NCBI RefSeq assembly: GCF_947502445.1
Contig: NZ_CANMZW010000021.1
Coordinates: 14,823 to 78,822, forward strand
From: an uncultured Brevibacillus sp.
GTDB lineage: Bacteria > Bacillota > Bacilli > Brevibacillales > Brevibacillaceae
Reading direction: 5' to 3'
DNA length: 64,000 bases
Part shown: in pieces, positions 29,724-48,555 of the stretch
Layout of the letters: each line of letters opens with the position of its first letter
Numbering within the stretch: the first letter of the stretch is position 1
Position numbers and translations under genes: made by a program
Notes under the pieces: model-generated
Database searches by the model: none
The model's input: only the letters and a program-made list of their open reading frames with translations
What the model was told of the DNA's origin: nothing

Positions 29724-29861
29724 CGCGGACTTCATCAATAACACCCTGTACGTCGCCCGAGCGGCATGTGTAGGGTGTTTCACTTGGTTATGGGAAGTTG
29801 ACAAAAAACAGCAGCAGCGATGGACTTTCTTACAAGCCCACGGCTACTGCTGTCTATCCCG

Positions 29862-31499: not shown

Positions 31500-31786
31500 C
31501 GTATCCCTCCAGTGCAGTATGGCAAAAAGCATGCAAAAAGGCCAGGGAAATACCTCCCTGACCCGTGATCCAAAGGATTTGAATACATGTATCATATATT
31601 TTCTGACAATGGTCGTCAATGGAAAGGAATAAATTGTGGGAAAAATCTCACAAAAACTACCACAGAATATTCTGGTTTGCCTTTGTATTTGTGGTACGGT
31701 AGAAAATGTAGAGCGGATTAAAAGGCATTTTACGGCTTGAACGGACTGGTATGATACTTGCTTGTAATAGATTGTGGGGGGATGTT

Positions 31787-34666
31787 ATGGAGGAACGCAT
31801 CAAGCAGATTATTGATCAAGAGGATAAAAAAGTTCCGTATACCGATGAGCAGATTGCGCGTCAGATGGGAATTCGTCGAGATGAGGTAACGCTGCTTCGG
31901 CATAAACTCCAGGTTCCCGACTCACGCAAAAGAAGGCAGCCTCTCTTGCTCAAGGATATGGAGAAGCTTTTACATTCTTCACCGAACATGACGAGCCGGG
32001 AGCTAACGAGCCGTTTGAACGAACAAGGCTATGATGTATCTCGTTTCATGGTTCATCAATTACGAAGCAAAATGGAAGCGTTCTCAGGTGAAACGCCAAA
32101 CATAGATGACCATGCTCGCCAAAAAACGAGGAAGGTCAGCCAGGCGGTTACCTTCGCCAGTCTGATAGGAGCAAAGAGTACACTGAAAGCGGCTATTCAA
32201 CAAGCGCAAGCAGCAGTCCTCTATCCACCACACGGACTTCATACTCTCTTTTTTGGAGCTACAGGTGTGGGCAAGAGCAGAATGGCGGAAGCGATGTACC
32301 AGTTTGCAATCGAGCAGCAGGTGATGAAGAAAAACGCACCGTTTGTTATTTTTAACTGCGCCGATTACGCCAAAAATCCGCAGCTGTTGCTTTCCCAGCT
32401 ATTCGGGTATGTAAAGGGAGCGTTTACTGGTGCCCAGCAAGATAAGCCCGGGTTAGTGGACCAGGCAGACGGTGGAATTCTGTTTTTGGATGAAATTCAT
32501 CGATTGCCACCGGAAGGGCAGGAAAATCTCTTTTATCTGATCGACAAAGGCGTATATCGACGTTTGGGAGAGGTCCAGTTCCAGCAAAAGGCGACCATAC
32601 TGATCGTCGGTGCGACGACAGAGGCCCCCGAATCAAGCCTGTTGTTGACGTTGCGTAGACGGATTCCCATGACGATAGAGCTACCCTCTCTCTCCGAATG
32701 GACACAACAGGAGCGTCTATCTCTGATTTTCCATTATTTGAATGAAGAGACAGACCGTATTGGCAGAGAGGTTGTCGTCCAAAAGGATGTGGTTGCCTCC
32801 CTTTTGACCTATGATTGTCCTGCAAATATGGGGCAGCTGCACAGTGATATTCGTGTCCTGTTGGCGAAAGCCTTTTTGAAAACGATTCATCAGGTAGAAA
32901 AGACGGCTGTTCAGGTCGATCGATATGATTTGCCTATGCACGTCGCCAGTCACCAGCAATCAGCCGAGCTGGCACCAGAGCTGCCAATGCTAAAGAAAGA
33001 CCAGTTCCTATTTGTTCCCGGCCAACGCTCCGATCTGGTGGGAACAGAGATAGTCGAGGATGCTCCCCAGCATCTCTATGATTGGGTGGTAGAGCGCTAT
33101 CAAAATCTCAAAAATCAAGGTCAAAGCGAAGAATTGATCGAGCTCATCGTAAACAAGGAACTGGATACACGGATGGAGCCGTTCACAGGCGAAGAAGAAA
33201 AACGCTCGCTGCGCTTGCAGCAGCTGGTCAAACTGGTCGGGGATCAGGTTGTTCAGGCTGTGGAACAAATGCTCTGGATCGCGGAGCGCCACATTACTCT
33301 GGATTACCAACGGATCTCCTATGCTCTCGCCATTCATTTGCATGGACTGTTGGAGAGATGGCCGGATACGAAAGAAATGGATAGCTGGATCGAAACCGAT
33401 CAGGAGTCGATGGAGTTCAAAGTGGCGCTGGAAATGGCAAAGGTGATCCAAACCAGCTATGGAATATTACTGCCTGTAAAAGAAGTGTCTGTTCTCGCCA
33501 TGTACGTCAAGCAGTGCTCGATCTATACAGAGCCGAAGCCAATGATTGGTGTAGTCGTCACTTCGTATGGACTCGTAGCCAAAAGCATGGCCGACGTCGC
33601 TTCCCGCCTGTTTGAACGAAAGCATGCGCAGGCAGTTGAGCTGTATTGGAACGATGATCTGGTTGTGTCAATCGAGCGAATCAGCACAATGATCCAGCAA
33701 GCGGATCAAGGAGAAGGGGTCATTTTGCTGGCAGATATGGGGAGCAATCTGCTGAGTGAAGAGGAATGGAATAGGCGAAGCGGTGTACGTGTAAAGGTCC
33801 TGCCCAATGTGACCACTACTCTCGTCATCGAGGTCATCAGAAAATGTCTCTACTCCAGTGAATCGCTTGAGCAGATCGTGGACCAGATGCAGCATTTGCC
33901 TGTCAAATCTCTTCATTCGATCCAGTCACTTACTCCCAAGCCAGTAGCCATTGTCACCATTTGTATCACGGGTAAAGGTGCCGCCAAACGATTGGATCAG
34001 CTTTTACAAGAAAAGCTGGAGACTGCTGCAACGCAGGTCACCATTTTACAGGCAAGCTCGCTTTCGATTCGAAAGCAGTATAAGGAATGGTTGGAGAAAT
34101 ATCACATCTTTGCTGTTGTCGGTACGGTGAATCCCATGCTGGATGGCATTCCGTTTATTTCGATAAAAGAGATTGTGGACGAGTCCGGCATCAGCTTTAT
34201 CAAACGATTGTTGCTCGTGGCCAATCGGACACTCCAGCCAGCATGGGTTCCTCGCTTACATGGATTGCGCGATCTACTCTACCCGGAGTTGGTCTGTGAC
34301 GATTTGGAGCTGTCTACGAAGCAGCAGGTGATCACTGTCCTTGCGCAACGACTGAGAGAGCACGGTTTCGTTGAGGCAGGCTTCGAGGGCAAAGTGTGGG
34401 AACGCGAAAAAATAGGGAACACATGCCTGTTTGGAACAGCGATCCCGCATGCCGATACGACACAAACGATCAGACCGGGTATCGCGATTGCCAATCTCGC
34501 ACAGCCAATTGAATGGGAAACAGGATACTTTGTAAGTCAAGTGTTCATGCTTGCCATCACGGAGACATGCCAACTGGCGGTAGAGGAGCTGTACCAATTT
34601 TTACACGAGCACGAAGAAGAGAATGTGCCACCTGATTTACAGACATTCATGAAGCTTGAACAGTAA
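31787..34666 (+). CDS. Sigma54-interacting PRD/PTS-regulated activator (LevR-like)
   Basis: GATGVGKS Walker A, GAFTGA, LFLDEIH; followed by PRD, EIIA-like, EIIB-like (ICITGKGAA) and EIIA (AIPHAD) segments. Confidence 0.9.
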   Translation: MEERIKQIIDQEDKKVPYTDEQIARQMGIRRDEVTLLRHKLQVPDSRKRRQPLLLKDMEKLLHSSPNMTSRELTSRLNEQGYDVSRFMVHQLRSKMEAFSGETPNIDDHARQKTRKVSQAVTFASLIGAKSTLKAAIQQAQAAVLYPPHGLHTLFFGATGVGKSRMAEAMYQFAIEQQVMKKNAPFVIFNCADYAKNPQLLLSQLFGYVKGAFTGAQQDKPGLVDQADGGILFLDEIHRLPPEGQENLFYLIDKGVYRRLGEVQFQQKATILIVGATTEAPESSLLLTLRRRIPMTIELPSLSEWTQQERLSLIFHYLNEETDRIGREVVVQKDVVASLLTYDCPANMGQLHSDIRVLLAKAFLKTIHQVEKTAVQVDRYDLPMHVASHQQSAELAPELPMLKKDQFLFVPGQRSDLVGTEIVEDAPQHLYDWVVERYQNLKNQGQSEELIELIVNKELDTRMEPFTGEEEKRSLRLQQLVKLVGDQVVQAVEQMLWIAERHITLDYQRISYALAIHLHGLLERWPDTKEMDSWIETDQESMEFKVALEMAKVIQTSYGILLPVKEVSVLAMYVKQCSIYTEPKPMIGVVVTSYGLVAKSMADVASRLFERKHAQAVELYWNDDLVVSIERISTMIQQADQGEGVILLADMGSNLLSEEEWNRRSGVRVKVLPNVTTTLVIEVIRKCLYSSESLEQIVDQMQHLPVKSLHSIQSLTPKPVAIVTICITGKGAAKRLDQLLQEKLETAATQVTILQASSLSIRKQYKEWLEKYHIFAVVGTVNPMLDGIPFISIKEIVDESGISFIKRLLLVANRTLQPAWVPRLHGLRDLLYPELVCDDLELSTKQQVITVLAQRLREHGFVEAGFEGKVWEREKIGNTCLFGTAIPHADTTQTIRPGIAIANLAQPIEWETGYFVSQVFMLAITETCQLAVEELYQFLHEHEEENVPPDLQTFMKLEQ

Positions 34667-34681
34667 TCGAGGAGGATTTCC

Positions 34682-34945
34682 ATGGAAAAACAAGTGACGA
34701 TTCTAAATAAAACAGGACTTCACGCTCGTCCCGCATCTGAGTTTGTCAAACTGGCTGCCCGTTTCGAGTCAGAGATCACGATTTTGGTGGGGACAAAAGT
34801 CGCGAATGCGAAGAGTATCATCAACGTTTTATCGCTGGCGGCAACGATGGGTACCGTTTTTACTCTGAGAGCGGTAGGGCCAGATGAAGCTGAAGCAATC
34901 GATGCTCTCTCCTCTTTAATTGAGAGAAAGTTTGGGGAAGAATAA
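34682..34945 (+). CDS. HPr family phosphocarrier
   Basis: GLHARPA (His15), AKSIINV (Ser46). Confidence 0.93.
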   Translation: MEKQVTILNKTGLHARPASEFVKLAARFESEITILVGTKVANAKSIINVLSLAATMGTVFTLRAVGPDEAEAIDALSSLIERKFGEE

Positions 34946-34956
34946 ACATTTGACCC

Positions 34957-35019
34957 TTGACTACGTAATCAGAATATTTATAATGAATTACAAATGTAAC
35001 CACAAGGAACAAATGTAAA
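34957..35019 (+). promoter_or_regulatory. SigA promoter with tandem operator A
   Basis: TTGACT-N16-TATAAT then TTACAAATGTAAC-N7-AACAAATGTAAA. Confidence 0.7.
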
Positions 35020-35039
35020 AATATCCGGAGGTGACGTGC

Positions 35040-35204
35040 ATGAAGCCGATTGAAAAGATAACTCCCGGAGCAAAAGTATACAAACTGTTTGAACACGAAA
35101 AGCTGGTTTGCGAAGGAAAAGACGAGGTTTTCATTATCTCGATCACCAAGATGTCGCGCGAGGAATACGAGCGGGACCTGAAGCAGGCAGCTGTTAATCA
35201 ATAA
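35040..35204 (+). CDS. Small hypothetical protein, 54 aa (not in ORF track)
   Basis: RBS GGAGGTG; MKPIEKITPGAKVYKLFEHEKLVCEGKDEVFIISITKMSREEYERDLKQAAVNQ*. Confidence 0.65.
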   Translation: MKPIEKITPGAKVYKLFEHEKLVCEGKDEVFIISITKMSREEYERDLKQAAVNQ

Positions 35205-35324
35205 ACTTGATACGCACTACGACGCTTGGACCACGGGTCAGGTGGGGGATTCAAACCTCCATCTGGTCCGTTTTTTTCTTCATACAAGCCTGTTGATACT
35301 GGCATATCCGAGGAGGAGAGGACT

Positions 35325-36311
35325 TTGATTACTAACATAAACGTTCCACCCATGATTACAGAGAAAAAGCTGGTGGAGCTGTATCATCAAATGTGGCTGA
35401 TTCGCTTTTTCGACGAGAAGGTAGATGAGTTTTTTGCCAAAGGACTGATCCATGGAACGACCCACTTGTGTGTGGGCCAGGAGGCTTCGGCAGCAGGTGC
35501 CATTGCGGTTCTGGAAGATCGGGACAAGATCACCAGCACGCACCGTGGACATGGTCATTGCATCGCCAAAGGTGCAGAGGCGAACCGGATGATGGCAGAG
35601 CTGTTCGGTCGTGTAACCGGATATTGCCGTGGTAAAGGCGGATCGATGCACATTGCGGATGTAGATAAAGGCAACCTGGGGGCGAATGGCATTGTCGGCG
35701 GTGGGATTCCAATCGCTGTCGGATCAGCTCTCACTTCGCAGATGAAAAAGCTAGGCTATGTGACCATGTGCTTTTTCGGAGATGGCGCCACCAATGAAGG
35801 CAGCTTTCATGAAGCGGTCAATATGGCGGCGATCTGGAACCTTCCTGTCGTCTTTGTTTGTGAAAATAATCAATACGGGATGTCCGGCCCGGTCAAGGAC
35901 ATGGTGAAAGTCGCGAACATCGCGGATCGTGCAGCAGCGTATGGCATTCCTGGCAAAGTGGTAGACGGCAATGACATTTTTGCCATGATGAACGTGACTC
36001 ATGAAGCAGTGGAACGAGCACGGCGAGGAGAAGGTCCAACGCTCATCGAAGCCAAGACCTATCGCTGGAAAGGCCACTCCAAGAGCGATGCGAAAAAATA
36101 TCGTACACGTGATGAGGAAATGGATTGGCGCAATAATCGTGATCCGATTGAGCGGATGAAGCGCGTTCTGATCAGTGAAGGAATCGTAAGCGAGCAGGAA
36201 GCAGCGCAGCTGGAAGCAGATGCAAGACAAGAAATTGAAAATGCGGTCAAGTTTGCTGAGGAAAGCCCGATGCCGCCGCTCGAAATTTTAGAAGAAGACG
36301 TCTACGCATAG
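35325..36311 (+). CDS. ThDP-dependent dehydrogenase E1 alpha (AcoA/PdhA-like)
   Basis: HLCVGQEA, STHRGHGH, GDGATNEG..N ThDP motif, YRWKGHS; TTG start after GAGGAGG. Confidence 0.92.
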   Translation: MITNINVPPMITEKKLVELYHQMWLIRFFDEKVDEFFAKGLIHGTTHLCVGQEASAAGAIAVLEDRDKITSTHRGHGHCIAKGAEANRMMAELFGRVTGYCRGKGGSMHIADVDKGNLGANGIVGGGIPIAVGSALTSQMKKLGYVTMCFFGDGATNEGSFHEAVNMAAIWNLPVVFVCENNQYGMSGPVKDMVKVANIADRAAAYGIPGKVVDGNDIFAMMNVTHEAVERARRGEGPTLIEAKTYRWKGHSKSDAKKYRTRDEEMDWRNNRDPIERMKRVLISEGIVSEQEAAQLEADARQEIENAVKFAEESPMPPLEILEEDVYA

Positions 36312-36329
36312 GCGAGGGAGGGATATCAA

Positions 36330-37322
36330 TTGTCAACGATGAGAGAGCTTACTTACCTGGAAGCGGTACGCGAATGTATGAGTCAGGAAATGCGCGTCAA
36401 TGAAGACGTATTTATCATGGGTGAAGATATTGGTTTGTATGGAGGGGCGTTTGGGGTCACTCGCGGGATGCTCGAAGAATTTGGCAAAGAACGCGTGCGA
36501 AATACGCCGATCTCGGAAGCAGCAATTGCTGGTGCTGCGGTTGGAGCAGCCATGACGGGTATGCGGCCCATCGTGGAGCTGCAGTTCTCCGATTTCATCA
36601 CGATTGCGACCGATCAGATCGTAAACCAGGCTGCGAAGAACCGCTATATGTTTGGCGGCAAAGGAAAAGTGCCACTCGTACTGCGGACACCATCCGGTTC
36701 AGGTACAGGAGCAGCTGCCCAGCACTCGCAGAGCCTGGAAGCCTGGATGGCACACATTCCGGGGCTAAAAGTTATCCAGCCGTCTACCGCCTATGATGCA
36801 AAAGGGTTGCTGAAAGCTGCAATCGATGACGACAATCCTGTAATCTTTTACGAGCACAAGCTCCTTTACCGGACAAAAGGTCATGTGCCTGAGGAGTCGT
36901 ACAGCTTGCCAATCGGGAAAGCAGATATCAAGCGTTCCGGTACGGATGTGACAATCGTGGCTACTGCAATTATGGTTCATAAGGCATTGCAAGCTGCAGT
37001 CGAGCTGGAAAAGGACGGGATCAGCGTCGAAATCATCGATCCTCGTACGCTCGTTCCTCTGGACATTGAGACAATTGTGGAATCGGTGAAAAAGACCGGG
37101 CGACTTGTTGTCGTTCATGAGGCGGTAAAGCGTGGCGGGTTTGGCGGGGAGATCGCAAGCTTGATCGCAGAGAGCGAAGCCTTTGATTATTTGGATGCAC
37201 CTATCAAGCGTTTAGGTGGCAAATCGGTGCCAATTCCGTACAATCCTGTCCTCGAAAAAGCAGCCATACCACAAGAACTTGATATCATCCAAGCGGTAAA
37301 AGAGACAGTTTTCCGCCGCTGA
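36330..37322 (+). CDS. Dehydrogenase E1 beta (AcoB/PdhB-like)
   Basis: [30 protein letters not shown]. Confidence 0.92.
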
Positions 37323-37342
37323 CATAGGAGGGGTCGAACATC

Positions 37343-38563
37343 ATGGCAACTGCCGTATTTATGCCAAAACTGAGTATGACAATGGAAACCGGAACAGTCA
37401 TCCAATGGTTCAAGCAAGAAGGGGACCAGGTTCGTGAAGGTGACGTCCTGCTGGAAGTTTTGACGGATAAAATCAACATCGAAGTAGAATCGTACACGAC
37501 CGGAACACTCCTGAAAATTTACTATGGCGCGGACCAAGTCGTTCCTGTAAATCAGGTGATCGGATACGTAGGAGAAGCAAACGAAAATGTACCAGATACA
37601 CCTCCGCTGGTAGAAACTAGTGCCAGTCAGGAAGAAGCAGAAGCCCCAGACGATCAACCGTCCAAGGAAGAAACACAAGGCAGTGAATCACTTGACCAGA
37701 AAATCAGAGCAACTCCTGTCGCTCGCCGAATGGCACGGGAGAACGGAATCGATCTGGGACAAGTGAATGGTTCCGGTCCCAATGGCCGCGTCCAAAAAGC
37801 AGATATCGAACATACTCTTTCTGCGAACGCTGGCAAATCAGCTTCCACAAGTACGGGACCAGTGACAAGCCTGCCAGGTCAACAAGTGAAAGTGGAAGGC
37901 ATGCGCAAGGTTATTGCAGAGCGTATGGTAGCGAGTGCGTACACCGCTCCTCACGTGACTCTCTCAACGGAAGCAGATATGAGCCAGGTAATCGAGGTAC
38001 GTTCTGCTTTGCTGCCTACGATCGAGAAATTGACCGGACATCGCTTGTCCTACACGGAAATTATTATAAAAGCTGTCGCCATGGCATTAGCTCGTCATCC
38101 GAAAGTAAATGCGTCACTCAAAGATGATGTGATCCAGCTTCACGAGACCATCAATATCGGTGTGGCTGTCGCGGTGACAGACGGATTGCTCGTACCCGTA
38201 ATCAAACAGGCGGATCAAAAAGGGCTCACACATTTGACTACCGAGACAAAAAGGCTGGCTGGATTGGCTCGTGATGGCCGTCTGCTTCCGGATGATATGC
38301 GCGGTGGCACGTTTACGATCAGCAACCTTGGGATGTATGCGATTGATGTGTTTACACCTATCATCAATCAGCCAGAGAGTGCCATTCTTGGAGTGGGACG
38401 AATCCATGAGAAGCCAGTAGGTGTAAATGGACAGATCGTACTACGACCAATGATGTCTCTTTCCTTGTCATTTGACCACCGTGTTATGGACGGGGCACCT
38501 GCGGCTGCATTCTTGCAAGAGATCAAAGAATTGCTGGAATCACCCTATCATCTGCTGGCGTAA
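37343..38563 (+). CDS. Dihydrolipoamide acyltransferase E2
   Basis: Lipoyl [11 protein letters not shown]3-binding ATPVARR, DHRVMDG. Confidence 0.92.
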
Positions 38564-38581
38564 AAGGAGGAGCAAACAACC

Positions 38582-39964
38582 ATGCAAACATACGATATCG
38601 CTGTTATAGGTGGAGGGCCAGCAGGGTATGTGGCTGCCATCCGAGCTTCCAAGGAAGGGAAGCGGGTCGCCCTGATTGAAGCAGACTTCGTGGGAGGGAC
38701 TTGCCTGAACCGGGGCTGCATTCCGTCGAAGACGCTGCTGCATAGTGCAGGTGTCATCGATCAAATTCGCAAGGCTTCCAGCTGGGGGATCGAGACAGGT
38801 GAGGTCACTGTTTCCCTGGAGAAAATGATGACTCGTAAAAATCAGGTCATCACACGACTAAGAACAGGAATCACGTCCTTGTTGAAGGCAGGAAAAATTG
38901 ATTTGCTCCAAGGCTTTGGCGAGGTGAATGCAGATAAAAGCATTCGCGTTCGGATCGGAGAAGAAGTCCAAACGATCCAGGCCAGCTCTATCATTCTCGC
39001 TACTGGCTCTACACCAGCGGTTCCGCCCATTCCGGGATTGGCAGATGTGCCTTTCTATACAAGCGATACGATTTTTGATATTGAACAGGTGCCAGAGTCC
39101 ATTGCCATTCTCGGCGGAGGATTCATAGGGGTGGAATTTGCCTGCATTTTTGCCAGCTTGGGTGCGAAAGTGACGATCGTCGAAATGGCAGATCGTCTTA
39201 TCCCTCTGGAGGATGCAGATGCATCAGGTGTATTGTCCAAATCTCTGCGCAGCAAAGGCGTTACCTTGGGGACTGGATTGAAGGTCACCTCGGTAACCAA
39301 AACGAGTGGGGGCATTCAAGTAAATGCCGAGAATACAAAGGGTGACACACAAGCGATTTCGTGTGAGGCTTTGCTCGTAGCAGTGGGGCGCAAACCGAAT
39401 TTATCTGCCTTTAGCCAGCTGAAGCTGGAGCTTAGTGGTCCATTTGTCAAAGTAAATGAATTTCTGGAAACAAGCGTCCCGGGAATTTTCGCTGCAGGTG
39501 ATGTGATCGGTGGATGGCAGCTCGCGCATGCTGCGAGTGCAGAAGGACAGACGGCAGCTATCAATGCAGCCGGTGGTAGGGAAAAAGTGAATGACAGAGC
39601 GGTCCCTCGCTGCATTTATACCCATCCTGAGATTTCGAGCGTAGGCTTGAGTGAGGAAGAAGCAAAAGCGCGTGGCTATGCTGTGAAAACGAGTGTCTAT
39701 CAGCACAGCGGAAACGGCAAGGCGGTGGCTTCTGATGAAAATGGCGGCTTTACCAAGCTCATTGCGGAAGAGACTTACGGTGAAGTACTGGGAATCGTGA
39801 TGGTTGGCCCTCATGTCACGGAAATGATTGCAGCTGGCACGGCGTTCTTGAGCTTGGAAGCAACTGTTGACGATGTAGCAGGAATGATTTACCCACATCC
39901 AACCGTTTCCGAGAGTCTGATGGAGGTTGCGGCAAAATGGTTGGGAAAAGGAATCCACTCCTAA
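38582..39964 (+). CDS. lpdA: Dihydrolipoyl dehydrogenase E3
   Basis: GGTCLNRGCIPSK, YPHPTVSE. Confidence 0.93.
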   Translation: MQTYDIAVIGGGPAGYVAAIRASKEGKRVALIEADFVGGTCLNRGCIPSKTLLHSAGVIDQIRKASSWGIETGEVTVSLEKMMTRKNQVITRLRTGITSLLKAGKIDLLQGFGEVNADKSIRVRIGEEVQTIQASSIILATGSTPAVPPIPGLADVPFYTSDTIFDIEQVPESIAILGGGFIGVEFACIFASLGAKVTIVEMADRLIPLEDADASGVLSKSLRSKGVTLGTGLKVTSVTKTSGGIQVNAENTKGDTQAISCEALLVAVGRKPNLSAFSQLKLELSGPFVKVNEFLETSVPGIFAAGDVIGGWQLAHAASAEGQTAAINAAGGREKVNDRAVPRCIYTHPEISSVGLSEEEAKARGYAVKTSVYQHSGNGKAVASDENGGFTKLIAEETYGEVLGIVMVGPHVTEMIAAGTAFLSLEATVDDVAGMIYPHPTVSESLMEVAAKWLGKGIHS

Positions 39965-39977
39965 AAAAAGATTACAT

Positions 39978-40031
39978 TTGACATGAAAACGGTTTCAATT
40001 TACAATTGTAACTGGTTAGAACATTTGTAAA
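39978..40031 (+). promoter_or_regulatory. SigA promoter with embedded cre and tandem operator B
   Basis: TTGACA-N17-TACAAT; TGAAAACGGTTTCA (cre-like) at 39984-39997; TTACAATTGTAAC-N7-AACATTTGTAAA at 40000-40031. Confidence 0.8.
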
Positions 40032-40044
40032 GAGAGGTGGTCAC

Positions 40045-40458
40045 TTGGCTTCTTGGGGATACGTTGTTCTGCTGTTTGCGGGGCTTTGGATATTACAGGT
40101 CGTCTTCACTCAGCTGCAATCCCGCCACTACTACCGGGAGTTACGCGAGATGCAACGGCAACCAAGCGGGTACCTGGGAGTCGGGGTGAACAAACGCCGT
40201 TTTGGAGTAGGTGCCGTCATCATTCTGGTAACGGATGTGCAGGGAAACGTAACGAATTGCAAGCGAATGTCTGGCATTAGCGTATTTTCCCGCTTTCGTC
40301 CGTATAATGACGCGATTGGAAAACCGATCGACAGCTTGTATGAAAGTGCGTCACAGCATCAGAAGCATCCGGTGCAAACGGCACTTCGAATGGCGATTGA
40401 CCAAATTCGGGGCGCGCAGGCCAAACAGCAGCAAGACAATCAACAACAAATTGGATAA
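40045..40458 (+). CDS. gutM: GutM/SrlM-like glucitol operon activator
   Basis: N-terminal TM, GxxGVG..G motif, position before srlA-like gene. Confidence 0.75.
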   Translation: MASWGYVVLLFAGLWILQVVFTQLQSRHYYRELREMQRQPSGYLGVGVNKRRFGVGAVIILVTDVQGNVTNCKRMSGISVFSRFRPYNDAIGKPIDSLYESASQHQKHPVQTALRMAIDQIRGAQAKQQQDNQQQIG

Positions 40459-40532
40459 AAATGTTGGGCCGCGGGCCAGATGGATGACCATCTGGTTTTT
40501 TTCGCATCATTTTCTAGGGGAGGTATGGGTAA

Positions 40533-41066
40533 ATGGACTTTTTTGTTCATCTTGCAGAGGGATTCATCGGCATGTTTCAAGAGGGGGGCAAGACCTTCAT
40601 CGGGCTGGTGACAGGCATCATCCCTACGTTGATTTGCTTGATCACAGCTGTAAACGCCTTCATCAAATTTGTGGGAGAAGAACGCATCGAACGGTTTGCT
40701 TCTAAATGCACCGGCAATATTATTTTGCGCTATACCCTCTTCCCGGTCTTATCCATGTTTTTCCTGACTAACCCAATGGCTTATACATTCGGCAAGTTTT
40801 TGCCTGAGCACCAGAAGCCAGCCTTCTACGATTCAGCTGTATCGTTCTGCCATCCGATCACAGGATTGTTCCCACATGCGAATGCGTCTGAGCTGTTCGT
40901 GTATATGGGCATCGCCACCGGAATCACTCAGCTTGGTCTGTCTCTTGGACCCCTCGCTATTCGCTACTTCTTGGTCGCGATTGTCATCATCTTGATTCGC
41001 GGTATTGTAACGGAATATATCACCAAAATGATGATGAAGCGCCGCGAGATGCAGGCAGCGGCATAG
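40533..41066 (+). CDS. srlA: PTS glucitol/sorbitol EIIC
   Basis: TGIIPTL, FLTNPMAYTFGKFLPE, FPHANASELFV. Confidence 0.88.
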   Translation: MDFFVHLAEGFIGMFQEGGKTFIGLVTGIIPTLICLITAVNAFIKFVGEERIERFASKCTGNIILRYTLFPVLSMFFLTNPMAYTFGKFLPEHQKPAFYDSAVSFCHPITGLFPHANASELFVYMGIATGITQLGLSLGPLAIRYFLVAIVIILIRGIVTEYITKMMMKRREMQAAA

Positions 41067-41088
41067 AAGCGGAAAGGGGAGACACAGG

Positions 41089-42111
41089 ATGAGCAACTAT
41101 CGTGCGGTGCAAGTAACAAAAGGGTCCAGCGGTTGGGGAGGACCACTTACGATCCTGCCGACGGATGAGAAACCATATATTGCTTCGATTACAGGTGGTG
41201 GCATTCACCCTGTAGCGGCGCAAATTGCTGAGCTGACAGGCGGTATTGCAGTAGATGGCTTTACCAACAAAGTAGAGCCTGATGAAATGGCATGCGTCAT
41301 CATTGACTGCGGCGGAACGGCTCGAATTGGTGTTTATCCTAAGCTGGGAGTCTTGACAGTCGACGTAATGGCATCGTCACCATCCGGACCGTTGATCAAC
41401 TTTATTAAGGAAACCAACTTTGTTTCTGGCGTAAAAGTGAACAACGTCGAACTGACGAATGAAGTAGCTGCGGCTGCTGTCAGCACAGCTGGCGATCAAC
41501 AAAAGAAATCGGCACAGGAGCTGAAGGCCGAAGCGCGTGCCAAAGTAGCGAGCATGCAAAGCAATCAGCCGCAAAGGAAAACCGGCTTCATCGAAAAAGT
41601 CGGTCGTTTGATGGGTGGGGTAGTCAGCACCTTTTATCAGGCCGGGCGCGACACAGTCGATCAAGTATTGCGCAATATTTTGCCGTTCATGGCTTTTGTC
41701 AGTACGCTGATCGGGATCATCCTGTTCACCGGAATTGGCGATGTCATGGCAAATATTATTAAACCACTGGCTGGGAATTTGATTGGTCTTTTGATCATCT
41801 CCATCGTTTGCGCACTTCCCTTCTTGTCTCCGCTGCTGGGGCCGGGTGCGGTTATTGCACAAGTCGTAGGCGTGCTGGTAGGGGTGGAAATCGGGCGTGG
41901 TACAATTCCGCCGCAACTGGCGCTGCCGGCTCTGTTCGCCATCAATCCTCAAGTTGGATGCGACTTTGTTCCGGTGGGATTGACACTGGGAGAAGCAAAA
42001 CCAGAGACGATCGAAGTGGGAGTGCCTGCCGTTCTCATGTCTCGCCAAATTACGGGACCGATCGCAGTCGTTATCGCTTATGTGGCAAGCTTTGGGCTTT
42101 ATACCGAATAA
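41089..42111 (+). CDS. srlE: PTS glucitol/sorbitol EIIB/C
   Basis: GWGGPL, IDCGGTARIGVYPK, SPLLGPGAVIAQ, QVGCDFVPVG. Confidence 0.88.
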   Translation: MSNYRAVQVTKGSSGWGGPLTILPTDEKPYIASITGGGIHPVAAQIAELTGGIAVDGFTNKVEPDEMACVIIDCGGTARIGVYPKLGVLTVDVMASSPSGPLINFIKETNFVSGVKVNNVELTNEVAAAAVSTAGDQQKKSAQELKAEARAKVASMQSNQPQRKTGFIEKVGRLMGGVVSTFYQAGRDTVDQVLRNILPFMAFVSTLIGIILFTGIGDVMANIIKPLAGNLIGLLIISIVCALPFLSPLLGPGAVIAQVVGVLVGVEIGRGTIPPQLALPALFAINPQVGCDFVPVGLTLGEAKPETIEVGVPAVLMSRQITGPIAVVIAYVASFGLYTE

Positions 42112-42132
42112 TTCATAATCAGGAGGGTACAC

Positions 42133-42498
42133 ATGAACACCTTGTTTTCCAGCACGATCGTTTCCATCGGAGATTTGGTTCCAGATTTCCTCAAAGAGAA
42201 TACAGTGATTCTTTTCAATGAAGATGCTCCAGATGAGCTGCGCGATATTGCCGTGCTGCACACCAAATCCGAGCAATTCGTAAGCATCGAGCCAGGCGAC
42301 ATTTTCCAGATCGGTGACCTGCAGCTACGGGTTACATCAGTCGGAGAAAAAGCAAACGAAACCCTACAAACCATTGGTCATTGCACTGTGAAAGCGGATG
42401 GAAGTGCTGCCCCGCAGCTGCCTGGGATGATTCATGTCGAAGACGCTACCCTTCCTTCTTTAGAGATTGGGGTCAAAGTTGCCTTTTTCCGTCCGTAA
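42133..42498 (+). CDS. srlB: PTS glucitol/sorbitol EIIA
   Basis: ILFNEDAPDEL, VGEKANETLQTIGHCT. Confidence 0.88.
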   Translation: MNTLFSSTIVSIGDLVPDFLKENTVILFNEDAPDELRDIAVLHTKSEQFVSIEPGDIFQIGDLQLRVTSVGEKANETLQTIGHCTVKADGSAAPQLPGMIHVEDATLPSLEIGVKVAFFRP

Positions 42499-42537
42499 AT
42501 CACAACATCTACTATACAAAAGAGAGGGAGAGACACC

Positions 42538-43827
42538 ATGTTGGGATTCAATAGACGACTGGCAGCATTAGAGAAAGAGGGAGGCTGCATTCGCGTCGGT
42601 CTGGTCGGTGCTGGCCAAATGGGTCGGGGGCTGATCTCACAAATCGAAGGAATGAAAGGGATGTCCGTGGTAATCACGGCTGACTTGTTCCCTGAGAATG
42701 TAAAAGCCGCCTATCGCAAGGCAGGAGTACCTGAAAGCCGAATCACGGAAACGCAAGACCTCGACAAAGCGGATAAGGCGATCGCTTCTGGTCATTCGGT
42801 TGTAATGACAGATGCAGAGCTGATTCCTCAACTGGCGAATGTCGATGTGATCGTCGATGCGACTGGGATGCCGGAGATTGGTGCCAAGGTCGCATGGGAA
42901 GCGATCCGACATAAGAAGCATATCGTTATGCTGAACGTCGAAGCAGATATCACCATCGGACCACTCCTGAAGCAGCAGGCCGATGAAGCAGGTGTTATCT
43001 ATACAGGCTCGGCAGGGGATGAGCCTGGCGCGATTATGGAGCTCCATGACTTCGCAGACGCATTGGGCTTCGAGATTGTTGCTTTGGGAAAAGGAAAAAA
43101 CAATGCCTTGAACGTCCACGCCAATCCAGACACAGCTCGTGCAGAAGCCGCTCTAAAAGGATCGAGTCCCAAAATGCTTGCATCGTTTCAGGACGGAACC
43201 AAAACAATGGTGGAAATGACAGCAGTAGCCAATGCCACTGGATTTGTTCCTGACATTCCTGGTATGCATGGACGAAAAGCTCGATTGGAAGAACTGCCAG
43301 GTCTCTTCTCACTTGCTGAACAGGGCGGTATGCTTGGCCGCACAAAGATTGTCGATTATGTGGACGGTGTTGCCCCAGGCGTGTTTGCGATTATTTCCTC
43401 CGCGATGCAAGAAGTGCATGACACCATGAAATATCTGAAAATGGGCGCGGGTCCAAATTACGTCCTGTATCGCCCGTATCATTTGACTAGCTTGGAAACT
43501 CCTTTGTCTATTGCACGCGCGTATTTGCAGAAGGAAGCAACAATCGCCCCTTACTACGGCATGGTAGCAGAGACCGTAGCGGTAGCAAAGAAACAGCTGA
43601 AAGCCGGAGATGCGATGGATGGTATCGGTGGATTCTCCGCTTATGGCAAGATTGTGTCAGCAGCAGACAAGCGTGAGCAGAACGCATTGCCAATCGGCTT
43701 GATTGGGCCACACATTCGCTTGAAAAAAGATGTGGAGCAAGGAACCATTATTACTCTGGATGATATTGAATTTACCGAGCAAACCACTATTCTGCGACTG
43801 CGTGAGCAAATGGATAATGGGAATTAA
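42538..43827 (+). CDS. NAD(P)-dependent oxidoreductase with C-terminal SAF domain (homoserine-dehydrogenase-like)
   Basis: VGAGQMG, VDATG, NVEADITIG, GDEPG, DGTKTMVE, LYRPYHL, AVAKKQLKAGDAMDGIGG. Confidence 0.85.
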   Translation: MLGFNRRLAALEKEGGCIRVGLVGAGQMGRGLISQIEGMKGMSVVITADLFPENVKAAYRKAGVPESRITETQDLDKADKAIASGHSVVMTDAELIPQLANVDVIVDATGMPEIGAKVAWEAIRHKKHIVMLNVEADITIGPLLKQQADEAGVIYTGSAGDEPGAIMELHDFADALGFEIVALGKGKNNALNVHANPDTARAEAALKGSSPKMLASFQDGTKTMVEMTAVANATGFVPDIPGMHGRKARLEELPGLFSLAEQGGMLGRTKIVDYVDGVAPGVFAIISSAMQEVHDTMKYLKMGAGPNYVLYRPYHLTSLETPLSIARAYLQKEATIAPYYGMVAETVAVAKKQLKAGDAMDGIGGFSAYGKIVSAADKREQNALPIGLIGPHIRLKKDVEQGTIITLDDIEFTEQTTILRLREQMDNGN

Positions 43828-43947
43828 ATAGGTAGAGGGGAAGGAAGGCATGAACATGTCTTCCTCTTTCCTTTCTATAAAGAGGAACAAATCTGTTATA
43901 ATATGTAACGTAGAAGAGCATAGTAACGTTTTTAATGAGGGGTACGT

Positions 43948-44922
43948 ATGGATAACTGGACAGAAAAACGCGAAATGGTACGAGTCGCAAAATTATACTA
44001 TTTGACTGGACTCACACAGGCAGAAATTGCTAAAAAGCTGGGCGTTTCCCGTCCGGTGATTTCCAAGATGCTGCAGCGTGCCAAAGATACCGGCATCGTA
44101 GAAATTTATATCCGTGATGAAACGATGAGTATGGTGGAGCTGGAGCAGCAGCTGGAAGCAGCACTACGTCTGGATGAAGTCATTGTAGTCCCGTCATATG
44201 GGAACAAAAATGAAGAAGTGATCAAACAACAAGTTGCCAAAGCAGCTGCCCAGTACCTGCCCAAGTGGATTCGCAACAAACGGAGGATTGGAATCTCTTG
44301 GGGGACAACACTGTACCACCTCGTTAATGAATACCCGTTTGAGAGACACCATAAGATGAAAGTATACCCTCTGGTAGGCGGGATCGGCCGTCAGCGAATC
44401 GAAATTCACTCTAATCAGCTCGCCTATGAATTTTCAAAAAAATTGGGTGCAAGCTGTGAGTTTCTTTATGCTCCAGCTATCGCAGATTCTATGGAGCTAA
44501 AAAGACAGCTGGTAGACTCTCCGGACGTTCGCTCGATTTTGGAGGAGGCTCGACAAGTAGAGCTTGCCATCGTCGGGATTGGCAATCCGTATGAATCGAC
44601 CATGACAGAAATGGGATATCTTAAGGAAGAGGATCTTTGTCAATTGCAGGAAGGCAAGGCGGTTGGGGATATCAGTTCACGCTTTATCGATAAAACCGGT
44701 AAACCCATCCATAACGATTTGAATAATCGCGTCATCGGGATTGAGCTGGACGAACTGAAGCATATTCCAACCGTCGTGGGAGTCGTTTCTGGAAGCAATA
44801 AGCTGGACGCGGTTTGGGCCAGTTTGCAAGGCAATTATTTCGATAAGTTGATCATAGACGAATATTTGGCAGAAGTGTTATTGGAAAAGGCGAAGGAGGT
44901 GAGCATAAGTGAAAGAGGATAA
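43948..44922 (+). CDS. SorC/DeoR sugar-binding transcriptional regulator
   Basis: LTQAEIAKKLGVSRPVISKML; ISWGTT, VGIG, AVGDI. Confidence 0.9.
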   Translation: MDNWTEKREMVRVAKLYYLTGLTQAEIAKKLGVSRPVISKMLQRAKDTGIVEIYIRDETMSMVELEQQLEAALRLDEVIVVPSYGNKNEEVIKQQVAKAAAQYLPKWIRNKRRIGISWGTTLYHLVNEYPFERHHKMKVYPLVGGIGRQRIEIHSNQLAYEFSKKLGASCEFLYAPAIADSMELKRQLVDSPDVRSILEEARQVELAIVGIGNPYESTMTEMGYLKEEDLCQLQEGKAVGDISSRFIDKTGKPIHNDLNNRVIGIELDELKHIPTVVGVVSGSNKLDAVWASLQGNYFDKLIIDEYLAEVLLEKAKEVSISERG

Positions 44923-44923
44923 A

Positions 44924-45232
44924 ATGAGAACGACTCTGTTTTGTGACACTTGTATGGATGATACTGAACATGAAGTAACCTATGTAGATAAAATCCTGTA
45001 TCAGATTCGTTGTGTGGAATGTGAAAAATCACATTCGCGCGGATCAGAAATACAAAGAGAGCTTTACATGAATTATATGGAACGAGTCTTTAGCAAGCCA
45101 AAACGCTTCAAAAACGAGGCTGGGGAAAACTTACCTCATTTCCTGTTTTCACTCCCTTATCGTGTGATGAGCAAGCCTTTTCGTACCTACAAGGAAATTA
45201 AAAACATGTTTAATTATAAACGGAAAATTTGA
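44924..45232 (+). CDS. Hypothetical protein with two CxxC motifs
   Basis: CDTC and CVEC; 1 nt after the regulator stop. Confidence 0.7.
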   Translation: MRTTLFCDTCMDDTEHEVTYVDKILYQIRCVECEKSHSRGSEIQRELYMNYMERVFSKPKRFKNEAGENLPHFLFSLPYRVMSKPFRTYKEIKNMFNYKRKI

Positions 45233-45690
45233 GGAGAAACGCAAAAAGGGGCTGTCCAGAAAGTCGGATTATCTGACCTTCTGGAGCCTTTTTTATCGAA
45301 AGCCCCGGCTCGTTTTTTTGAGAAGAACAAAGCGATCATGCAAGGTTAACAAAACAAAAGCACAGTATTCGACGAGCTTCCCACTCGTTTGGATGCTGTG
45401 CTTTTGCCTGTTTGCCGTGTAAATCATTCCGAACTACTCAAGTGACGCAAGCATCATTTTGACAGCATTATCGATAAAGGCTCGGTTTGTGTATCAATGG
45501 CGAGAGCGCTTAATCCTTGCGAGATATTGCCAGTTAGAGCAAAAACGTGATATGCTTTTGTTAGGTAAAAGATAACGATCTGCTCACTGTAATCCTGGGA
45601 GCCTGATGATTGATGCTGGGAAACCGCGTCATGATCAGGCTCCTTTATGCTTTTATTAGGGCCATTATTTGCCTTAAATAAGCATAAGGA

Positions 45691-46950
45691 GTGAAGAGAG
45701 TGGGAGAAATTTTCAGGAATCGCAATTTTCGCAGGCTGTTCTTTTCTAATTTGTTTTCGGGGTTTGGGCAGGGGATGACCATGATTGGGATATCGTGGTA
45801 TCTGGTAGAGTCGACGGGCTCGGCTAGTTTGCTTGGCTCTACAATGCTTTTTTCCTCCATATTGACGCTTCTCGTGGGACCTTATTCGGGTACGTTGGTT
45901 GACCGTTTTTCGCGTAAGACGATTTTACAAATGGAACAGCTGGGTGGCTTCGCAGTACTGGCGCTTTTGGCCGTTTGGGGATTTTGGGGGAGTTATCACG
46001 AGTGGATGCTGGTTCTGCTTTATATGGCGACGTTATTCATGTTTCAGATTCATGAGCCAGCACAGGCTGCCTTTGTACAGGAGACATTCGCTCCCAAGCA
46101 TTACAAGGCGATCAACTCTTCACTGGAGATTGAGAATCAAACGGCATTGGTTTTAGCAGGAGGATTCGCGGGAATTATTTTGGGGAAATTCGGACTGCAT
46201 GTAGTACTGCTGTTCAATGCTTTCACGTACTTGATTGCTTTTATGATGCTGTCAGGAATTGACTACGTTTTTACACTGGGCAAGCAAACGGAGAAATCCC
46301 CGCGAACGTCTTGGGTAGAGCAATTTTATCAAAGCTGGGTTTATATCAGGGAGAGAAGAGGATTTATGATCTTCGGGGTTTCCGCTCTGGTACCGTTCAT
46401 AGCCGTTATGCTGGCGAATCTGTTGAATCCGATTTTTGTGAGTCAGGTTTTGCGAGAAGATGTGAAGATTTATTCGCTTGGAGAGGTGACGTATTCGATT
46501 GGTGCCGTAACAGCTGGTATTATGCTTGCCTGGTTTAGTAGAAAGCTCGGAGCTTTTTCGTACATGGTGCTGAATTATGTGTTCATGGCGATTGTGTTTG
46601 TTTTGACTATCGCTATACCAAACGGGTGGGTGTTTGTACTGCTGTCTGCTTTTATCGGATGGTGCAATGTTTCAACCCGGCTGATCCGACAGACCTTGTA
46701 CATGGAGCTGCTGCCCAATCGTTTTATGGGGAGGGTCATGAGCTTTTTTAAATCAATCGGCACACTGATGAGACTTTTGCTGCTGTCTCTGTTCACAGTC
46801 ATGCTTGACTCTACGGGAGCGCAAGCAGGATACGTTGTGCTCGCCAGCTTTTTAATCATAGCAGCTCTCGGAATTGTCTTTTCTATGCGCCTGTTGATGA
46901 GACAGGTAGACAAAGCTGAGACGGTGACAGGTCAGGGGTCTGTGGAGTAA
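45691..46950 (+). CDS. MFS transporter
   Basis: GTLVDRFSRK motif A; about 12 TM helices. Confidence 0.9.
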   Translation: MKRVGEIFRNRNFRRLFFSNLFSGFGQGMTMIGISWYLVESTGSASLLGSTMLFSSILTLLVGPYSGTLVDRFSRKTILQMEQLGGFAVLALLAVWGFWGSYHEWMLVLLYMATLFMFQIHEPAQAAFVQETFAPKHYKAINSSLEIENQTALVLAGGFAGIILGKFGLHVVLLFNAFTYLIAFMMLSGIDYVFTLGKQTEKSPRTSWVEQFYQSWVYIRERRGFMIFGVSALVPFIAVMLANLLNPIFVSQVLREDVKIYSLGEVTYSIGAVTAGIMLAWFSRKLGAFSYMVLNYVFMAIVFVLTIAIPNGWVFVLLSAFIGWCNVSTRLIRQTLYMELLPNRFMGRVMSFFKSIGTLMRLLLLSLFTVMLDSTGAQAGYVVLASFLIIAALGIVFSMRLLMRQVDKAETVTGQGSVE

Positions 46951-47225
46951 GGGTAAAGGTGGGAGATTATCCACGATAGAATAGCTCCTCACCAGGGAGG
47001 GGCTTTTAGGTAAAAAGCGCCTCGATGGGCGCCTTTTACCTAGTGCATTATTTTCGTTTGGCATTAGCCAGAAACTCATCCAGATACGCTCTGACAGGCG
47101 GCGACAGTCGTTCCTTCTTCATTTGTAAAGTTTGGAATTCTCGTTATATCCATTATACGATACGCTGCATTTCATAGAGGCAACAAAAAAGCCAGGGGAG
47201 GCCCCTGGCTTTACTCCATTCAGCG

Positions 47226-48278: not shown

Positions 48279-48335
48279 AACGGTCATCTCCTTGTTGGGC
48301 TAGAGGATTATATATGAAATTCAGAAAGAGAAATA

Positions 48336-48347
48336 GGAAACGTTTCC
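48336..48347. promoter_or_regulatory. LacI-type/cre palindrome between bdh and the LacI gene
   Basis: Perfect palindrome GGAAACGTTTCC; variant GAAAACGATTCC at 48518-48529. Confidence 0.6.
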
Positions 48348-48555
48348 GAAATAAATATGTCATAACTTTGACATATTGTCAAATCGCTATATGTGTGCAA
48401 AAAGTCAAATAGTGTGTTGCTCGCAGATGCTTCGTAGACGTGCAGCCAGCTTTGCGATCAGGTCACGGAGATATGGTATAATCAACTAAAGAAAGCTTAC
48501 TTTGAATCGAAAAAACAGAAAACGATTCCGAGATGGAAAGGATCTCTACCATACG

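Follow-up and report, generated by a model that had tools for sequence, protein, structure and literature searches.

What is a sugar transporter of the glucitol class doing without a sorbitol-6-phosphate dehydrogenase, beside a complete dehydrogenase complex that resembles acetoin dehydrogenase? The question is raised by a locus of an uncultured Brevibacillus sp. (assembly GCF_947502445.1, contig NZ_CANMZW010000021.1), lying in a stretch of 64,000 nucleotides (contig positions 14,823 to 78,822, forward strand) that we call the window and in which all positions below are counted. Here the genes of a glucitol-type phosphotransferase system (PTS) precede a gene for an NAD/SAF oxidoreductase and follow the four genes of a thiamine diphosphate (ThDP)-dependent E1E2E3 complex. 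Homology places the oxidoreductase among the DXR-II/DRL enzymes, which interconvert deoxyxylulose-5-phosphate (DXP) and methylerythritol-4-phosphate (MEP). We consider it rather probable that the locus is a catabolic regulon for 2-C-methyl-D-erythritol (ME), which would be degraded by way of MEP and DXP to acetyl-CoA and D-glyceraldehyde 3-phosphate (GAP). The general scheme of uptake with phosphorylation, oxidation and ThDP-dependent cleavage, drawn from genomic context and homology, can be proposed with good confidence.

All genes named by an earlier, sequence-only reading were recovered on the + strand in the order and places it had given them: gutM, srlA, srlE and srlB, followed by the NAD/SAF oxidoreductase, a SorC regulator and a CxxC protein. 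The complete E1α/E1β/E2/E3 set that it had placed upstream of gutM was likewise present, with all four domain sets found at 35325–39964. It had also remarked on the absence of a SrlD-type enzyme, and among the genes scanned at 27.6–50.9 kb we found no sorbitol-6-phosphate dehydrogenase (SrlD/GutD) of the short-chain dehydrogenase/reductase (SDR) type. Only the beginning of the E1 gene set had been misplaced, at position 35040, where a small open reading frame (ORF) starts instead. The genes fall into three transcription units, consisting of the E1 genes, the genes from gutM to DRL, and sorC with the Zn-ribbon gene behind a terminator-like hairpin:

35325–36311, + strand: E1α (PF00676, E = 1e-94), 328 aa with its revised start
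36330–37322, + strand: E1β (PF02779 and PF02780)
37343–38563, + strand: E2 dihydrolipoyl acyltransferase with one lipoyl domain (PF00364), E3-binding domain (PF02817) and catalytic domain (PF00198)
38582–39964, + strand: E3 dihydrolipoyl dehydrogenase (TIGR01350, 518 bits against a cut-off of 409)
40045–40458, + strand: GutM-family protein (PF06923, E = 2e-23)
40533–41066, + strand: SrlA, EIIC part of the glucitol-type PTS (PF03608, E = 8e-80)
41089–42111, + strand: SrlE, EIIBC of the glucitol-type PTS (PF03612 and PF07663; 487.6 bits with the NCBIfam SrlE equivalog, whose cut-off is 400)
42133–42498, + strand: SrlB, EIIA of the glucitol-type PTS (PF03829, E = 3e-34)
42538–43827, + strand: DXR-II/DRL by homology, an NAD/SAF oxidoreductase of 429 aa (PF21135, E = 5e-65)
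43948–44922, + strand: SorC/DeoR-family regulator with a sugar-phosphate-binding domain (PF04198, E = 2e-73)
44909–45232, + strand: Zn-ribbon protein (CxxC...CxxC) of 107 aa, no family match

The oxidoreductase, previously treated as anonymous, carries its PF21135 domain behind an N-terminal Rossmann domain (PF03447, E = 5e-7) and matches the DRL of Brucella abortus, which has been crystallised with fosmidomycin (PDB 3UPL/3UPY), at E = 1e-99. At the positions that are diagnostic for DXR-II or bind substrate, all 25 of 25 residues are identical to those of Brucella DRL, including K185, K187, T223, H244 and R312. The list of diagnostic residues (K191, K193, T229, H250, R320, Y322, G121, V351 and others in Brucella numbering) was taken from Carretero-Paulet et al. 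2013 (PMC3847144), where K191, K193 and T229 are anchors for fosmidomycin and substrate, E174, F178, R320 and Y322 are residues of the dimer cavity, and certain positions separate DXR-II from the inactive relatives DLO1 and DLO2. Overall identity is 93% to a B. choshinensis protein, 65% to the B. halodurans orthologue and 43% to Brucella DRL over the alignment, a comparison made among DRLs, and more than 7,800 homologues were seen in a similarity search; the B. halodurans orthologue and the DRL of S. fredii NGR234 both belong to the DXR-II clade of the same study. By these homology measures the oxidoreductase appears to be a DXR-II/DRL enzyme, and it presumably catalyses DXP ⇌ MEP.

Elsewhere, DXR-II/DRL is known only as a biosynthetic substitute for DXR-I in the MEP pathway, as in Brucella abortus, whose enzyme shares family PF21135 and the active-site and diagnostic residues with the window protein. 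The window gene, in contrast, lies in a repressor-controlled operon behind a PTS and beside a ThDP complex, a catabolic setting that implies the opposite physiological direction. Such a gene context goes unmentioned in the DXR-II literature that we searched ("sorbitol" occurs 0 times and "operon" once), in which the presence of DXR-II alongside DXR-I in Firmicutes, or in bacteria without other MEP or mevalonate genes, is recorded as unexplained (PMC3847144). A separate DRL clade occurs in Tissierellales (loci L063, L067, L071, L082 and L024:4065), where it adjoins isoleucyl-tRNA synthetase, a permease-like protein and an HI0933-like flavoprotein and has neither a PTS nor E1; Anaerosalibacter (L024) carries both types of DRL. 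This clade may be the form of bacteria without an MEP pathway.

The DXR reaction can run in both directions, its equilibrium lying on the side of MEP, and DXP (CH3-CO-CHOH-CHOH-CH2OP) is an acetoin-type α-hydroxyketone, matching the CH3-CO-CHOH-R structure that acetoin-type E1 enzymes cleave. Since the oxidoreductase appears to be a DXR-II, the branched polyol would most likely be ME and the ketose phosphate the 1-deoxy sugar DXP. ME would be taken up and phosphorylated to MEP by the glucitol-type PTS (SrlA, SrlE and SrlB with enzyme I (EI) and an HPr paralogue), DRL would run in reverse from MEP to DXP, and the E1E2E3 complex would cleave the CH3-CO-CHOH- bond (DXP + CoA + NAD+ → acetyl-CoA + GAP + NADH). 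In this last step E1 would split DXP into hydroxyethyl-ThDP and GAP, the reverse of the carboligation half-reaction of DXP synthase, and the acetyl group would be passed on via lipoamide. The irreversible cleavage would be needed to pull the DRL step, given the position of the DXR equilibrium. In Salmonella, the sorbitol PTS is responsible for the transport of ME, reportedly one of its side substrates (Testa, Cornish & Poulter 2004, as cited in PMC3994034). Plants build up both ME and glucosides of it, and export of methylerythritol cyclodiphosphate has been described for bacteria and plants under stress (PMC11192765). The conversion of a PTS-phosphorylated polyol to a ketose phosphate and then to an acyl-CoA and an aldose phosphate, as the sequence-only reading had proposed, thus finds support in context and homology, namely in the linkage of DRL with E1E2E3 in about 31 of 84 loci, the replacement of the PTS in rhizobia, an operator common to both operons and the position of E1 in a clade sister to the acetoin enzymes.

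Two known systems help to place this scheme. SrlA, SrlE, SrlB and GutM are common to the window and the glucitol/sorbitol PTS operons (srlAEBD-gutM-srlR-gutQ in E. coli and Salmonella; gut in Streptococcus, Lactobacillus and Clostridium), whereas the SDR sorbitol-6-phosphate dehydrogenase, GutQ and SrlR of the srl operon are missing from the window, which has DRL, a SorC-type regulator and the Zn-ribbon protein instead and whose gutM operon, unlike the sorbitol operons, is apparently co-regulated with E1E2E3. The Lsr pathway of the quorum signal autoinducer-2 (AI-2), with LsrK kinase, LsrG isomerase, LsrF thiolase and LsrR repressor, converts phosphorylated 4,5-dihydroxy-2,3-pentanedione (DPD) to acetyl-CoA and dihydroxyacetone phosphate (DHAP). 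It resembles the proposed route in taking a phosphorylated 1-deoxy C5 sugar to acetyl-CoA and a triose phosphate, and in having a SorC-family repressor that binds a phosphorylated intermediate. Its enzymes are unrelated, however, with an aldolase-fold thiolase in place of the ThDP/lipoyl complex and no reductoisomerase.

Gene neighbourhoods were compared among 80 genome loci with relatives of the oxidoreductase, loci from exact-protein look-ups and annotated plasmid records; window proteins were searched against all loci, all ORFs were clustered, and counts refer to 84 sources, among which absences mean little because many contigs are short. Near DRL, glucitol-type PTS genes occur in about 60 of the 84 loci, a SorC regulator in 59 and E1α/E1β/E2 in 31, in differing gene orders; in Firmicutes the link of DRL to E1E2E3 recurs in some 30 loci. 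The Zn-ribbon protein (107–120 aa, two CxxC pairs; for example L001:11417-11758) is encoded near DRL or SorC in about 25 loci, most of which have E1E2E3 as well. The order in B. halodurans (C-125, BH0770-0780 region) is gutM-srlAEB-DRL-Zn-ribbon-E1E2E3-SorC, the DRL-E1E2E3 cluster is arranged divergently in P. megaterium and Aneurinibacillus, and E1α stands immediately 3' of DRL in seven loci (L009, L021, L026, L031, L036, L038 and L043; the taxa are Virgibacillus, Tepidanaerobacteraceae, Thermovorax, Acetobacterium, Halanaerobium and Hakubella). The cluster of Rhizobium, Agrobacterium and Sinorhizobium fredii NGR234 consists of a SorC-type regulator, an ABC transporter, a PfkB sugar kinase and DRL-E1α-E1β-E2-E3, the ABC transporter (binding protein, two permeases and ATPase) standing in place of the PTS; the DRLs of these clusters are 71–73% identical to the experimentally validated Brucella enzyme. 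An exchange of PTS for ABC transporter and PfkB kinase around a constant DRL-E1 core is the classical signature of a pathway made up of uptake and phosphorylation, oxidation and cleavage.

MEP-pathway genes appear among the neighbours. In a metagenome-assembled genome of Lutisporaceae (L033:3690-19976), ispD is separated from ispF by a whole SorC-PTS-DRL-HAD-E1E2E3-EI-Zn-ribbon island, whereas a related locus has the two genes side by side. ispD is immediately upstream of SorC in two Lachnospiraceae loci (L069 and L072), and ispG adjoins DRL in Christensenella and Paenibacillus thalictri (L045 and L049). Within the Lutisporaceae island, an ISLre2-family transposase is inserted between srlE and srlB.

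Where E1E2E3 is missing, other carbon–carbon-cleaving modules are found. A trio of class II aldolase, TIM-like protein and YjbQ/UPF0047 protein adjoins DRL in 11–14 loci of Selenomonadales, Lachnospiraceae and Eubacterium and never co-occurs with E1, and a fructose-6-phosphate aldolase adjoins DRL in two loci without E1E2E3. Aldolases of the latter type are notable for accepting 1-deoxy ketoses built from hydroxyacetone. That loci without the complex carry such modules argues that the product of DRL needs a dedicated cleavage step, unlike fructose-6-phosphate (F6P) or a pentulose-5-phosphate. The trio might, more speculatively, provide a non-oxidative route in which DXP is converted to 5-deoxypentulose-1-phosphate and then to DHAP and acetaldehyde. 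Its aldolase belongs to the class II fructose-bisphosphate aldolase family; the trio loci, among them those of Eubacterium callanderi and C. psychrophilum, are L030 (11501–13586), L050, L057, L062, L064, L066, L073, L074, L077, L078 and L080.

Two further kinds of enzyme were seen in DRL loci. A Cof-type HAD-IIB sugar phosphatase is encoded in 11 loci (including L009, L022, L024, L027, L029, L032, L033 and L049), twice directly between DRL and E1α, and may be a safety valve against a build-up of MEP or DXP. In Priestia megaterium (L003:11607-13208) an FGGY pentulose-kinase-like gene lies directly 3' of DRL; its best model is ribulokinase, with xylulokinase and AI-2 kinase also matched and all scores below cut-offs. 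This kinase could phosphorylate free deoxyxylulose or ME.

Databases name the E1 proteins "acetoin dehydrogenase" or "pyruvate dehydrogenase". Against curated models of pyruvate dehydrogenase (PDH), the window E1α scores 388.1 (TIGR03182, cut-off 393.85), E1β scores 415.8 with a subfamily model (NF006667, cut-off 321) and E2 is below every cut-off. A neighbour-joining tree of E1α (50 bootstraps, a modest sample, outgroup Sphingobium PDH) included as references four canonical Aco sequences, taken from operons that their context marks as genuine acetoin systems: Enterococcus faecium, where the neighbours are an AcoR-like sigma-54 regulator and 2,3-butanediol dehydrogenase, Acinetobacter, where acetoin reductase is a neighbour, Klebsiella (acoABCD) and Staphylococcus. 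E1α proteins linked to DRL, SorC or a galactitol-type PTS, from Firmicutes and Alphaproteobacteria alike, form one clade in 41 of 50 bootstraps, sister to canonical Aco. The window E1α is 56–60% identical to E1α of the rhizobial clusters, compared with 45–53% to canonical Aco, Firmicutes included. The label "acetoin-dehydrogenase-like" in the sequence-only reading was therefore accurate as to likeness, but the complex stands outside the acetoin group, its E1α belonging to the sister clade.

Ten E1α positions, of which five are invariant, are at least 94% conserved in this clade and hold other residues in each of the four Aco sequences. Five of the ten changes from Aco replace hydrophobic or acidic residues by polar or basic ones (F→T45, M→N117 and F-E-G→S252-K253-S254); further clade-specific residues are W268 of E1α and H142 and R294 of E1β. 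S252-K253-S254 directly follow the His of the loop that aligns to "GHSMSD", phosphorylation loop A of human PDH E1α, a loop that forms part of the active-site channel in PDH. The reversal from Glu to Lys and the more polar pocket are suggestive of a fit to a hydroxylated, phosphate-ester leaving aldehyde rather than to acetaldehyde. In the heteromeric ThDP E1α/β, the lipoyl E2 and the E3, the window complex is like the acetoin dehydrogenase systems (AcoABCL/AcoR of B. subtilis and those of Klebsiella, Enterococcus and Acinetobacter), and the same chemistry is expected of it, the conversion of CH3-CO-CHOH-R to acetyl-CoA and an aldehyde. It is unlike them in its partners, which are sugar transporters, kinases and DRL, in the loop S-K-S where Aco has F-E-G, and in the proposed aldehyde product, the sugar phosphate GAP. 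No AcoR-type control and no butanediol or acetoin partner genes were found at the E1 operon, which has a sigma-A promoter and a SorC-type operator. In E. coli PDH E1, single amino-acid changes suffice for DXP formation in vivo (PMC3424233).

The control regions of the complex and of the PTS-DRL operon hold the following elements:

34957–34984, + strand: sigma-A promoter before the E1 genes (TTGACT-16-TATAAT, agreeing with the consensus at 11 of 12 positions)
34988–35018, + strand: bipartite operator TTACAAATGTAA-N7-GAACAAATGTAA before E1, a candidate SorC-regulator site directly after the -10 box
35040–35204, + strand: small ORF of 54 aa (MKPIEKITPG...) with a ribosome-binding site, only in Brevibacillus
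35233–35271, + strand: terminator-like hairpin behind the small ORF and ahead of E1α, followed by a U7 run (stem of 16 bp, -24.2 kcal/mol, z = -2.9)
39978–40006, + strand: near-consensus sigma-A promoter before gutM (TTGACA-17-TACAAT), overlapping the operator
40000–40011 and 40019–40030, + strand: bipartite operator before gutM (TTACAATTGTAA and GAACATTTGTAA, respectively), directly after the -10 box
40473–40498, + strand: hairpin with a U7 run between gutM and srlA (11-bp stem; the 62-nt region folds at -20.5 kcal/mol)
43832–43878, + strand: terminator-like hairpin closing the gutM-DRL operon (-25.2 kcal/mol, z = -5.0)

An operator shared by the E1 and gutM operons had been claimed from the sequence, and both the enrichment of its core over shuffled sequence and phylogenetic footprinting agree with this. 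The 10-nt core ACAAATGTAA has 13 matches in the window with at most one mismatch, compared with 5.0 ± 2.3 in shuffles (0 of 100 shuffles reach 13), and exact copies are present in the window only upstream of E1α; an extra half-site lies ahead of gutM at 39972–39981. The bipartite site, seen in at least 10 genera, precedes E1α, gutM, sorC or DRL in Halalkalibacterium, Virgibacillus, Marinococcus, Salibacterium and Neobacillus, and is likewise placed in Planococcus, Shimazuella, Paenibacillus, Acetobacterium and a second Brevibacillus. The SorC-family regulator, with an N-terminal helix-turn-helix and a PF04198 sugar-binding domain, falls below the curated cut-offs for DeoR (261.8 against 420) and LsrR (158.6 against 486). 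It is probably the protein that binds the shared operator, as a repressor. In the proposed mechanism it would bind the TTACAAATGTAA operator and so repress both the E1 operon and the gutM operon, probably along with its own, until it is released, probably by DXP or MEP.

The leader of the E1 operon may add a second layer of control. The 54-aa small ORF has counterparts in Brevibacillus sp. SYP-B805 (70% identity) and B. laterosporus (53%) and gave no match in the family search, and the hairpin behind it is kept in Brevibacillus sp. SYP-B805 (L004) despite altered stem bases. This region could be an attenuator, or the ORF could encode a small regulatory protein. E1α most likely starts at the TTG at 35325, behind GAGGAGGAG, giving 328 aa; a start at 35226, as in the ORF list, was rejected, as that stretch holds the terminator-like hairpin and orthologues have 326–328 aa. 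The gap between gutM and srlA (40459–40532) is only 12 bp in B. halodurans, and the hairpin within it is a possible internal attenuator that sets gutM apart from the transporter genes. No riboswitch or known RNA leader was found, with no Rfam match at E ≤ 1 in 34000–46500. Metatranscriptome contigs from soil, of related strains (~95% identity), span the whole locus; we treat them as uninformative on regulation, since they may contain DNA and come with no record of the condition.

The functional unit probably extends upstream of E1, over 27529–34945, to a second PTS of the galactitol type with an EI, an HPr paralogue and its own sigma-54 promoter and activator:

27529–27544, + strand: sigma-54 (-24/-12) promoter-like site TGGCATAGCATTTGCA with 1 mismatch, 33 nt before the EIIA gene, the best in the region
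27577–28059, + strand: EIIA of a galactitol/ascorbate-type PTS (matches to the NCBIfam EIIA models for galactitol and fructose)
28056–28340, + strand: EIIB of the galactitol-type PTS, sharing 76% identity with its orthologue in B. laterosporus and 59% with that in C. debilis, both of which adjoin E1E2E3
28374–29723, + strand: EIIC of the galactitol-type PTS (PF03611 EIIC-GAT, E = 1e-85; TIGR00827, 469 bits, below the cut-off of 542)
29862–31619, - strand: PTS enzyme I (PEP-utilising enzyme domains)
31751–34666, + strand: LevR/DagR-like sigma-54 activator of 971 aa (domains PRD, EIIA-Man and EIIA-2; 443 bits with the DagR model, which is under its cut-off)
34682–34945, + strand: HPr paralogue (PF00381, E = 4e-29)

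EI genes are near the DRL cluster in about eight other loci and HPr paralogues in about 14, and a galactitol-type PTS is paired with a LevR-like activator in B. laterosporus and C. difficile too. The sigma-54 pattern is not enriched overall in the window, and the site at 27529–27544 is supported by its position and context only. Sigma-54 control of the E1 operon was considered and rejected: there is no -24/-12 site near E1α or gutM, and because the sole good match precedes the galactitol-type PTS, the LevR-like activator does not seem to drive the E1 operon and instead probably controls that PTS. At the other end of the cluster, 45691–49581 holds a major facilitator superfamily (MFS) transporter, a Zn-dependent dehydrogenase of the medium-chain (MDR) type (47226–48287, - strand) and a LacI regulator, all three of which were weighed as possible members of the pathway. 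The best model of the MDR dehydrogenase is an IolM-like scyllo-inosose 3-dehydrogenase, below its cut-off, and homologues are near only 3–5 other clusters (including L008, L009, L039 and A. pallidus). Within the MFS ORF, at 45925, the operator core recurs with one mismatch (TTACAAATGGAA).

How far does this evidence single out ME? Several points count against so specific an assignment. In B. laterosporus, Caldibacillus debilis, Aeribacillus pallidus and C. difficile, E1E2E3-SorC-Zn-ribbon blocks stand beside a galactitol-type PTS only, and DRL is missing from the 10 kb around them; the complex thus does not in every case receive its substrate from DRL, and that substrate may be something other than DXP. 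Reverse flux through DRL depends on coupling to the E1 step; the E1 clade has a neighbour-joining bootstrap of 82% and is set against only four canonical Aco sequences; its residues are read as active-site residues from the alignment to human PDH; the ispD neighbours may simply be housekeeping genes; and SrlE exceeds the NCBI equivalog cut-off for the sorbitol protein, so that it may transport sorbitol. We speculate that the galactitol-type PTS feeds the E1 substrate by phosphorylation alone, for example from free 1-deoxy-D-xylulose to DXP, giving two entry routes. The same scheme might, alternatively, serve another deoxy or branched substrate, such as 2-methylthreitol, the 1-/6-deoxy-alditols L-rhamnitol and L-fucitol, 1-deoxy-D-xylulose or a derivative of AI-2 (DPD), with turnover of DXP and MEP as a side activity. 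Context supports the general scheme without identifying the substrate, and the pairing of E1E2E3 with the DRL-free galactitol-type PTS, and with MDR/SDR dehydrogenases in A. pallidus, makes several entry substrates likely; the SorC regulator is weakly LsrR-like and the P. megaterium FGGY kinase weakly AI-2-kinase-like. We nevertheless find a substrate other than ME unlikely for the window, given that every DXR-II-diagnostic and fosmidomycin-contacting residue is conserved, that close rhizobial orthologues are so similar to the validated Brucella DRL, that ispD, ispF and ispG neighbours point to MEP and that a glucitol PTS accepts ME (Testa 2004, as cited in PMC3994034).

The ispD, ispF and ispG neighbours could also be taken as signs of salvage, in which ME would supply MEP for isoprenoids via IspD and DXP for thiamine and pyridoxal, and E1E2E3 would remove surplus DXP or be unrelated. 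Many loci with only PTS, DRL and SorC, and no cleavage module within reach, would fit such a role, as would the rescue of MEP-pathway mutants by ME via the sorbitol PTS in Salmonella (as cited in PMC3994034). Many of those contigs are short, however. In the window and about 30 other loci the four-gene complex is under common control with the PTS and DRL or shares a transcript with DRL, and SorC-type repression together with a PTS of high capacity is typical of the use of a carbon source; salvage instead of catabolism thus appears improbable. We give least credence to an ordinary sorbitol operon, with DRL replacing SrlD, that merely adjoins an ordinary acetoin or pyruvate dehydrogenase. The SrlE score and the database names of E1 are in keeping with it, and work on Listeria takes the gut-SAF operon to be one for sorbitol (PMC11176438). 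Yet the linkage is kept across phyla even where an ABC transporter and kinase replace the PTS, the operator is common to both operons, the E1 clade is apart from aco operons carrying AcoR or butanediol dehydrogenase, and the DRL active site is that of DXR-II at each residue checked; F6P, moreover, could do without a cleavage module of its own, but aldolase modules are present in loci that lack E1.

Degradation of ME via DXP accordingly remains the reading that we prefer. The component families are known; what would be new is the pathway itself, the direction in which DXR-II works in the cell and the action of the complex on a sugar phosphate. In the full-text literature searched we came across no account of ME catabolism, nor any that ties DXR-II to a PTS and a ThDP complex. 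To our knowledge, no 2-oxoacid- or acetoin-dehydrogenase-type complex acting on a sugar phosphate has been described before, and E1E2E3 would be the first, an oxidative reverse of DXP synthase. A wider proposition seems to us as easily right as wrong: that DXR-II is primarily, and perhaps ancestrally, catabolic, and that a widespread regulon of Firmicutes and Alphaproteobacteria degrades ME, and probably free deoxyxylulose, via DXP. E1E2E3 would then be a "DXP dehydrogenase complex", strict anaerobes would use an aldolase and isomerase instead, and the biosynthetic use in Brucella and Bartonella would be secondary, following the loss of DXR-I.

If the proposal holds, its ME-inducible promoter and repressor would be usable as parts, a PTS that delivers MEP directly could supply engineered isoprenoid pathways, and a catabolic enzyme that is sensitive to fosmidomycin could be a confounder in work on that drug. 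The annotations "sorbitol PTS", "acetoin dehydrogenase" and "homoserine-dehydrogenase-like" would be wrong in thousands of genomes, including those of Listeria and C. difficile, and lipoyl-dependent dehydrogenase complexes would gain a new class of substrate with predicted specificity residues. The regulon would supply a missing piece of carbon cycling for ME, its glucosides and the related 2-methyltetrols, compounds that come from plants, stressed bacteria and the atmospheric oxidation of isoprene and for which the literature searched gave no catabolic route. For the DXR-II family itself, a catabolic role would explain its patchy and seemingly "redundant" occurrence beside DXR-I, and even in bacteria without an MEP pathway, the puzzle recorded when the family was surveyed (PMC3847144).

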